The notes under the pieces are model-generated. The model was given only the letters and a program-made list of their open reading frames with translations. It made no database searches and was not told the origin of the DNA. DNA of 58,190 bases, taken from the NCBI RefSeq assembly GCF_003334255.1, contig NZ_QOWU01000031.1, one strand, 5' to 3'. Of the stretch, positions 24,691-24,884 are shown one piece after another. Position numbers and translations under genes: made by a program. Origin of the DNA: Escherichia coli. Its GTDB lineage: Bacteria; Pseudomonadota; Gammaproteobacteria; Enterobacterales; Enterobacteriaceae. Every line of letters starts with the position of its first letter. Positions within the stretch are counted from its first letter, which is position 1.

Positions 24691-24710
24691 TCGTAGGCAT
24701 TAGACATTTG

Positions 24711-24870
24711 TGCCTGATGCGACGCTTGACGCGTCTTATCAGGCCTACAACCGGTGCCGCATCCGGCAATTGGTGCACAATGCCTGATGCGATGCTTGAC
24801 GCATCTTATCAGGCCTACAATGGGTACCGGATCGGTAGGCCGGATAAGGCGTTTACGCCGCATCCGGCAA
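24711..24870. repeat. Cluster of REP/BIME-type extragenic palindromic repeats between convergent ybcF and purK
   Basis: Repeated imperfect palindromes of the form GCCTGATGCGACGCTTGACGCGTCTTATCAGGCCTACAA, plus CCGGATGCGGCG-type units, seen directly. Confidence 0.8.
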
Positions 24871-24884
24871 GAATAGAGCACCAG

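Follow-up and report, generated by a model that had tools for sequence, protein, structure and literature searches.

The REP/BIME cluster of the convergent ybcF–purK gap in Escherichia coli: a BIME-2 with one truncated Z2 unit and a series of length alleles

The window analyzed here, a stretch of 58,190 nucleotides from an Escherichia coli assembly (contig NZ_QOWU01000031.1), contains two genes that converge on a short intergenic gap. The carbamate kinase gene ybcF (23797–24690, + strand), identified from the open reading frame list and from how RefSeq annotates MG1655 and a 100% identical locus, is the last + strand gene before the gap and ends with a TAG stop at 24688–24690. On the other side purK, the last gene of purEK (24885–25952, – strand; open reading frame list and RefSeq annotation), reads towards the gap and has its stop codon at 24885–24887. 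The gap between the two stops, 24691–24884, is 194 bp long, and every base of it matches E. coli K-12 MG1655 551333–551526. A 551-nt stretch around the gap is a 100% match to several E. coli chromosomes annotated with ybcF and purK, and the flanks are 99.3–99.6% identical to those of K-12-derived strains, which makes the source of the window a near relative of K-12 but not K-12 itself. Used as a query, the same 551 nt (gap plus flanks) found a median of 27 matching places per E. coli genome, the pattern of a dispersed repeat. The MG1655 RefSeq annotation carries no repeat feature at this gap and an official REP number therefore cannot be assigned. In the supplements of a recent study of REP elements (bioRxiv 10.64898/2026.03.23.713779), purK and ybcF appear in expression tables only; their gap is not among the REP loci studied.

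The REP foot motif CTTATCMGGCCTAC is present four times in the 58-kb window, against a chance expectation of 0.42, which argues that the palindromic units of the gap, where three of the four copies lie, are real and not fortuitous. A repeat search of the gap found three local palindromes, several inverted repeats, a 53-nt direct repeat at a spacing of 70 bp (24711–24763 and 24781–24833, 89% identity), and an exact 14-nt direct repeat, here called D2 (GCCGCATCCGGCAA), at 24756–24769 and 24857–24870. Together with a fuzzy scan using Y and Z patterns, this search resolved three intact palindromic units and one stump, all of them extragenic, between the ybcF and purK stop codons. The original prediction of a REP/BIME cluster at 24700–24880 between these convergent genes is thus confirmed. 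It also spoke of several tandem units, and here a correction is needed: the arrangement is not a simple tandem one, since successive Y and Z units point in opposite directions and one of the Zs has been cut short.

Following 21 nt of flank after the ybcF stop (24691–24711), the first unit is Y no. 1 (24712–24748, – strand), a Y of the long BIME-2 form; read on the – strand it has GTAG first, and read on the + strand it has CTAC last. Next come AACCGGT (24749–24755), recognized as the remnant of the head-to-head linker of unit 1 by comparison with full units in other alleles, and a Z2 stump (24756–24769, + strand) consisting of GCCGCATCCGGCAA, one arm of D2, the 3' end of a Z2 left after a 31-bp loss. 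The fuzzy scan placed a 14-nt tail-to-tail linker, AATTGGTGCACAAT, at 24768–24781, between the stump and Y no. 2; linker and stump overlap by two bases, the linker starting at 24768 and D2 ending at 24769. Y no. 2 (24782–24818, – strand), also of the long form and found by both searches, is joined by a short, S-type head-to-head linker of 16 nt (AATGGGTACCGGATCG, 24819–24834; fuzzy scan) to an intact Z2 (24835–24868, + strand), which has GTAG first on the + strand. A last 16 nt (24869–24884) separates this Z2 from the purK stop, so that the units begin 21 nt past the ybcF stop and 16 nt past the purK stop (in + strand coordinates, 16 nt before it). All three intact units have GTAG, which appears as CTAC on the opposite strand, and the AA/GC (TT/GC) stem mismatch is present; a GTAG foot tetranucleotide and a conserved stem mismatch are the defining marks of REPs (PMC3333891). 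Short ORFs of 95, 80, 59, and 40 aa run across the repeats and were dismissed as coding sequences because they consist of REP sequence.

The three intact units, 34–37 nt long, agree with the description of a REP as an imperfect palindrome of about 30–40 nt that forms a stem-loop. They fold at –19.0 to –21.3 kcal/mol with z-scores of –4.9 to –7.3 on both strands, and no shuffled sequence was as stable. On the two strands the hairpin energies are –21.3 and –20.4 kcal/mol for Y no. 1 (z –7.3 and –6.6), –19.9 and –19.0 kcal/mol for Y no. 2, and –20.9 and –21.3 kcal/mol for the Z2 at 24835–24868. The Z2 stump has no significant fold of its own (z –1.2 and –0.4). Taken as a whole, the gap also far exceeds its shuffles in fold stability, with z –5.0 on one strand and –5.7 on the other.

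The sequence that follows the ybcF stop (24691–24711 in the window, compared with positions 292–322 of loci L003 and L004) occurs in at least three unrelated versions. The K-12 version begins with TCGTAGGCATTAGAC, like a degraded REP foot, and the non-K-12 versions begin with another Z-unit stump (GCATCCGGCAATCGG...). Because a stump or a degraded foot follows the ybcF stop in these versions, the gap may formerly have carried more units.

The nature of the stump became clear from other alleles of the locus. In full-length alleles 64 nt (16 nt of linker, 34 nt of Z, and 14 nt of linker) lie between successive Y units. Here the stretch between the Ys (24749–24781) measures 33 nt and reads AACCGGT + GCCGCATCCGGC + AATTGGTGCACAAT, which is why we interpret it as a Z2 that has lost 31 bp. 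What is missing is the rest of the linker together with the GTAG foot, left arm, and loop of the Z2, whose last 12–14 nt are left. Of 5,426 complete E. coli genomes, 1,971 have this K-12-type junction, once in each and always at this locus, and the deletion therefore goes back to one ancient event passed on by descent and is not recurrent. Microhomology at the junction amounts to at most 1 nt.

Two classes of BIME matter here. BIME-1 consists of Z1 and Y separated by a long L linker and is single-copy, and BIME-2 consists of Z2 and Y with a short S linker and forms tandem arrays that differ in copy number from strain to strain (PMC3333891; PMC1187871). We anchored the classes empirically, using REP325, the model BIME-2, an array of 12 alternating Z2 and Y units (bioRxiv 10.64898/2026.03.23.713779), as the Z2/Y reference and 70 Z units that adjoin the L motif GCAAATTCWATAWATTGCA, collected by a scan of Escherichia genome contigs, as the Z1 set. 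The L-linked Z units have the loop TGAAC (TTCAC on the GTAG-first strand) in 51/70 cases and TAAAC in 9/70; 60/70 have a short, 29-nt Y as partner, and their head-to-head linkers measure 33–35 nt. None of these traits (loop, short Y, 33–35-nt linker) is found in the ybcF-purK gap. REP325, which we retrieved from between yjdM and yjdN of E. coli K-12, is built of a 100-bp module of Y (36 nt), linker (17 nt), Z2 (34 nt; GTAGGCCGGATAAGGCGTTTACGCCGCATCCGGC), and linker (13 nt). The Z at 24835–24868 is identical at 34/34 positions to the five REP325 Z2 units, and Y no. 1 differs from the REP325 Y in length by one extra loop base. The original prediction had proposed sorting the units into Y, Z1, and Z2, and alignment to REP325 and to the L-linked Z1 set gave the order Y – truncated Z2 – Y – Z2.

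Could the element nevertheless be a BIME-1, that is, a RIP/RIB-type element working through IHF binding, as the mention of IHF in the original prediction would imply? The two classes share inverted REP pairs, GTAG feet, and nearly the same Z sequence, Z1 and Z2 being told apart mainly by a single loop base, T or C on the GTAG-first strand. However, the head-to-head linker is 16 nt long here, against 17 nt in REP325 and 33–35 nt in BIME-1. The L motif GCAAATTCAATATATTGCA is absent from the gap, as are the long linker with its conserved core and the A/B flanks of RIP/RIB elements, and the IHF consensus WATCAANNNNTTR has no match in 21241–26260 even with one mismatch allowed. In addition, the Ys are of the long and not the 29-nt form, the loop is of the Z2 type, and other strains carry the module in several tandem copies. 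A BIME-1 at this site is thus scarcely credible, and the general remark on IHF binding, a property that belongs to BIME-1, has to be qualified here.

By its sequence, the locus is a BIME-2 with the order Y – truncated Z2 – Y – Z2. We are confident in describing it as a BIME-2 of two Y+Z2 pairs, the first Z2 lacking 31 bp, in the shared 3' gap of convergent ybcF and purK, with roles that are those suggested by its class. Its likeness to REP325 extends to the 100-bp module, the long Y (36–37 nt), linkers of 16–17 and 13–14 nt, and the identical Z2. It differs in having three intact units and a stump (in the K-12-type allele) between convergent genes where REP325 has 12 units between tandem genes, in Y loops one base longer, and in the sequences of the linkers. 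The wider BIME-2 family, as reportedly classified by Gilson, Bachellier, and Hofnung, is matched in the alternating inverted Y and Z2 units, the short linker, and the tandem modules of varying number; the truncated Z2 of the K-12-type allele and a Z1-like loop base in some alleles depart from it. The alleles with this loop base have the same architecture and might be called 'atypical' under strict motif typing.

Several BIME-1-like elements elsewhere came to light in these comparisons. A second REP element of the window lies in the convergent glxK/allE gap (16445–16553) and is BIME-1-like: its Z-like unit (tgccggatgcggcatgag...) is degenerate, its linker core (gcaaattctatatattgca) is of the L type, and its Y is short (GTAGGCCTGATAAGCGAAGCGCATCAGGC). 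An A-run, a hairpin, and a second A-run come next, at 16548–16580, and could be a two-way terminator; Escherichia sp. E1V33 (L075) has an orthologous copy of the element. In Escherichia sp. MOD1-EC7003 (L131, 380–1100) at least five BIME-1-like modules (Z1 – L – short Y) stand in tandem with a 115-bp period, in contrast to the description of BIME-1 as single-copy. Escherichia-type BIME-1 was also seen on very short contigs assigned to Desulfosporosinus, Methylobacterium, Alkalicoccobacillus, Bacteroides (MAG), and Collinsella (MAG) (L039, L113, L070, L016, and L086, respectively), which are probably E. coli contamination of the assemblies.

We surveyed the alleles of the locus in 5,426 complete E. 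coli genomes, using the joined ends of ybcF and purK as the query. Both flanks were found in one place in 5,403 of these genomes, leaving at most 23 in which they were not. Gap lengths were read from 60 matches evenly spaced down the ranking, and a 93-bp allele was taken from outside those 60. The most frequent lengths were 194 bp (18/60) and 136 bp (15/60), followed by 532/533 bp (7/60), 138 bp (6/60), 204 bp (4/60), 232/233 bp (3/60), and 152 bp (2/60); lengths of 119, 126, 132, and 332 bp were found once each, and one gap of the 60 was disrupted. At least 12 length alleles thus exist, between 93 and 533 bp, which carry one to five Y-Z units of 100 bp or are REP-free. In the alleles that were read, a regular 100-bp module of Y, linker, Z, and linker is present in one copy (126–138 bp), two copies (232 bp), three copies (332 bp), or five copies (533 bp), so that tandem modules vary in number between strains across gaps of 126–533 bp. 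Such length polymorphism is documented behavior of BIME-2 loci (PMC3333891; PMC1187871). The 93-bp allele retains one Y and corresponds to the K-12 allele minus exactly 101 bp between the 14-nt direct repeats. The 152-bp allele, of the UTI89 type, has no REP and is found in 238/5,426 genomes, or ~4%; ~96% of genomes keep at least one REP unit in the gap. Given that REP-free, one-Y, and five-unit alleles all exist, no particular structure at this site is needed for viability.

Two of the alleles contain sequence of another kind. An unrelated sequence of 152 bp fills the gap of UTI89 (L011, 292–443). Its palindromic core, G-rich and ~48 nt long (CCCCTCGCCCCTGTGGGGAGAGGGTTAGGGTGAGGGG), is 92–95% identical to other loci in other genomes and may resemble the 'boxC' repeat. 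In the 119-bp allele of E. coli O166:H15 JNE070796 (L014, 251–369), the Y breaks off after its left arm, and a different palindrome (ATTATCCGACCTGGAAA...TTTCCACAGGTCGGATAAGG) takes over and continues into the Z unit.

One genome carries an insertion sequence at the locus. IS1397 is an insertion sequence known to target the loops of palindromic units, and in E. coli SK0189 (L013, 2440–4010) a copy adjoins purK. On the right this copy runs into the loop of the Z beside purK (...TCACGCCGCATCCGGCAATCAAATGAGCACCAGG), and on the left into that of a Y lying downstream of gsk, so that it is flanked by half a Y from the gsk-downstream BIME and half of the Z beside purK. Because the two ends join both loops, the ~50 kb that separate gsk and purK in K-12 must be missing or rearranged in SK0189, and the sequence of the junctions implies an IS-mediated deletion or rearrangement of this interval. 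A query made of the IS1397 end, the half Z, and the purK flank matched 32 places in SK0189, and the junction IS1397-Z-purK is unique among the 5,426 complete genomes; of the at most 23 genomes without joined flanks, SK0189 is the one that was examined for IS insertion. The idea that REP clusters are hotspots for IS insertion therefore applies to the repeat class and has a real instance here, in a Z loop, but at this site the event is rare (1/5,426 genomes).

BIME-2 elements are said to be DNA gyrase sites, as reportedly described by Espeli and Boccard in 1997, and the gyrase binding named in the original prediction is expected for the ybcF-purK BIME by analogy with that literature. A likely role of the element, by the same kind of analogy, is that of a two-way hairpin block in the 3'-UTRs combined with a gyrase site. 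When transcribed from either side, the hairpins would block 3'-5' exonucleases and so protect the mRNA 3' ends of the ybcF operon and of purEK. They may also stop read-through in part, with the assistance of Rho, and so limit antisense transcription into the opposite gene. As double-stranded DNA, Y-S-Z2 could serve as a binding and cleavage site for DNA gyrase at a place where positive supercoils build up from convergent transcription. Across the genome, a REP shared by two convergent genes goes with higher expression of the pair, and REP325 is both terminator and stabilizer (bioRxiv 10.64898/2026.03.23.713779).

The polymorphism of the locus leads us to infer that the ybcF-purK copy has been mobile. 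The units could have spread and changed in number through strand transfer by the REP-associated transposase (TnpAREP/RAYT), and units may also be gained and lost by recombination or slippage between the 100-bp direct repeats. TnpAREP cleaves and performs strand transfer at CT sites beside a REP that has GTAG and the stem mismatch (PMC3333891). Judged from the sequence, the units of the gap have what the enzyme needs (GTAG feet and stem mismatch), and as inverted REP doublets they resemble the REPIN/RAYT system (TnpAREP, yafM), although in the parts of the window that we looked at no gene was noted as a RAYT.

The same features are compatible with a different view of what the element does, namely that it is a neutral, selfish, REPIN-like doublet in a permissive gap, whose unit number drifts and which has no host function here. 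Identity as a BIME-2 is equally consistent with this view, and we regard it as a serious rival on function, one with a real chance of being correct even if we lean away from it. The length polymorphism is extreme, extending to the loss of all REPs in the UTI89 type and of all but one Y in the 93-bp allele, and the Z2 broken by the 31-bp deletion has been inherited unrepaired in all 1,971 genomes that carry the junction. Moreover, the recent preprint describes REP effects as variable and context-dependent and states that terminal REPs generally do not lengthen mRNA half-life (bioRxiv 10.64898/2026.03.23.713779). Against neutrality stand the genome-wide link to higher expression of convergent pairs, the retention of at least one unit in ~96% of genomes, and a compensatory change in the Y stem, C-G at 24723/24733 in Y no. 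1 being T-A at 24793/24803 in Y no. 2. A fuzzy scan of other alleles found the intermediate T.G at this stem pair and never C.A. A stem that passes through C-G, T.G, and T-A but never C.A would suggest selection on the + strand RNA or on single-stranded DNA.

If the hairpin block with a gyrase site is the likely role, two more specific transcriptional roles are far less so. Strong GC-rich hairpins between convergent genes recall a classical bidirectional intrinsic (Rho-independent) terminator, and many bidirectional terminators overlap REPs (bioRxiv 10.64898/2026.03.23.713779). However, on neither strand does a T/U run follow any hairpin of the gap, and the terminator scan returned 0 U-tract or terminator-like sites on both, which makes this mode of termination very unlikely here. 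Still less plausible is a separate small RNA like naRNA4, which is a nucleoid-associated RNA processed from a Y-Z2 pair: Rfam RF02564 matches the gap (E = 2e-6 and 5e-6) because that family was built from the REP325 Y-Z2 pair, all matches are well below threshold (best 43.9 and 42.1 against a gathering score of 59.5 bits), the promoter scan found no promoter-like site in the gap, and the preprint gives REP325/naRNA4 no nucleoid role (bioRxiv 10.64898/2026.03.23.713779).

The reading we prefer, a BIME-2 that would act as a two-way hairpin block and gyrase site, makes the ybcF-purK cluster an ordinary member of a known repeat class, with a copy already in the K-12 reference genome. REP and BIME elements have been in the literature since the 1980s, and the locus is of little importance by itself. 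Our study adds a unit-by-unit classification, the exclusion of an IHF-type element, and an allele series over 5,426 E. coli genomes. Unit number could conceivably act as a heritable dial, the alleles setting the stability of the purEK and ybcF-operon mRNAs or the convergent read-through lineage by lineage, an idea we consider doubtful. The allele series could provide a ready-made natural experiment on REP unit number and the expression of convergent genes.
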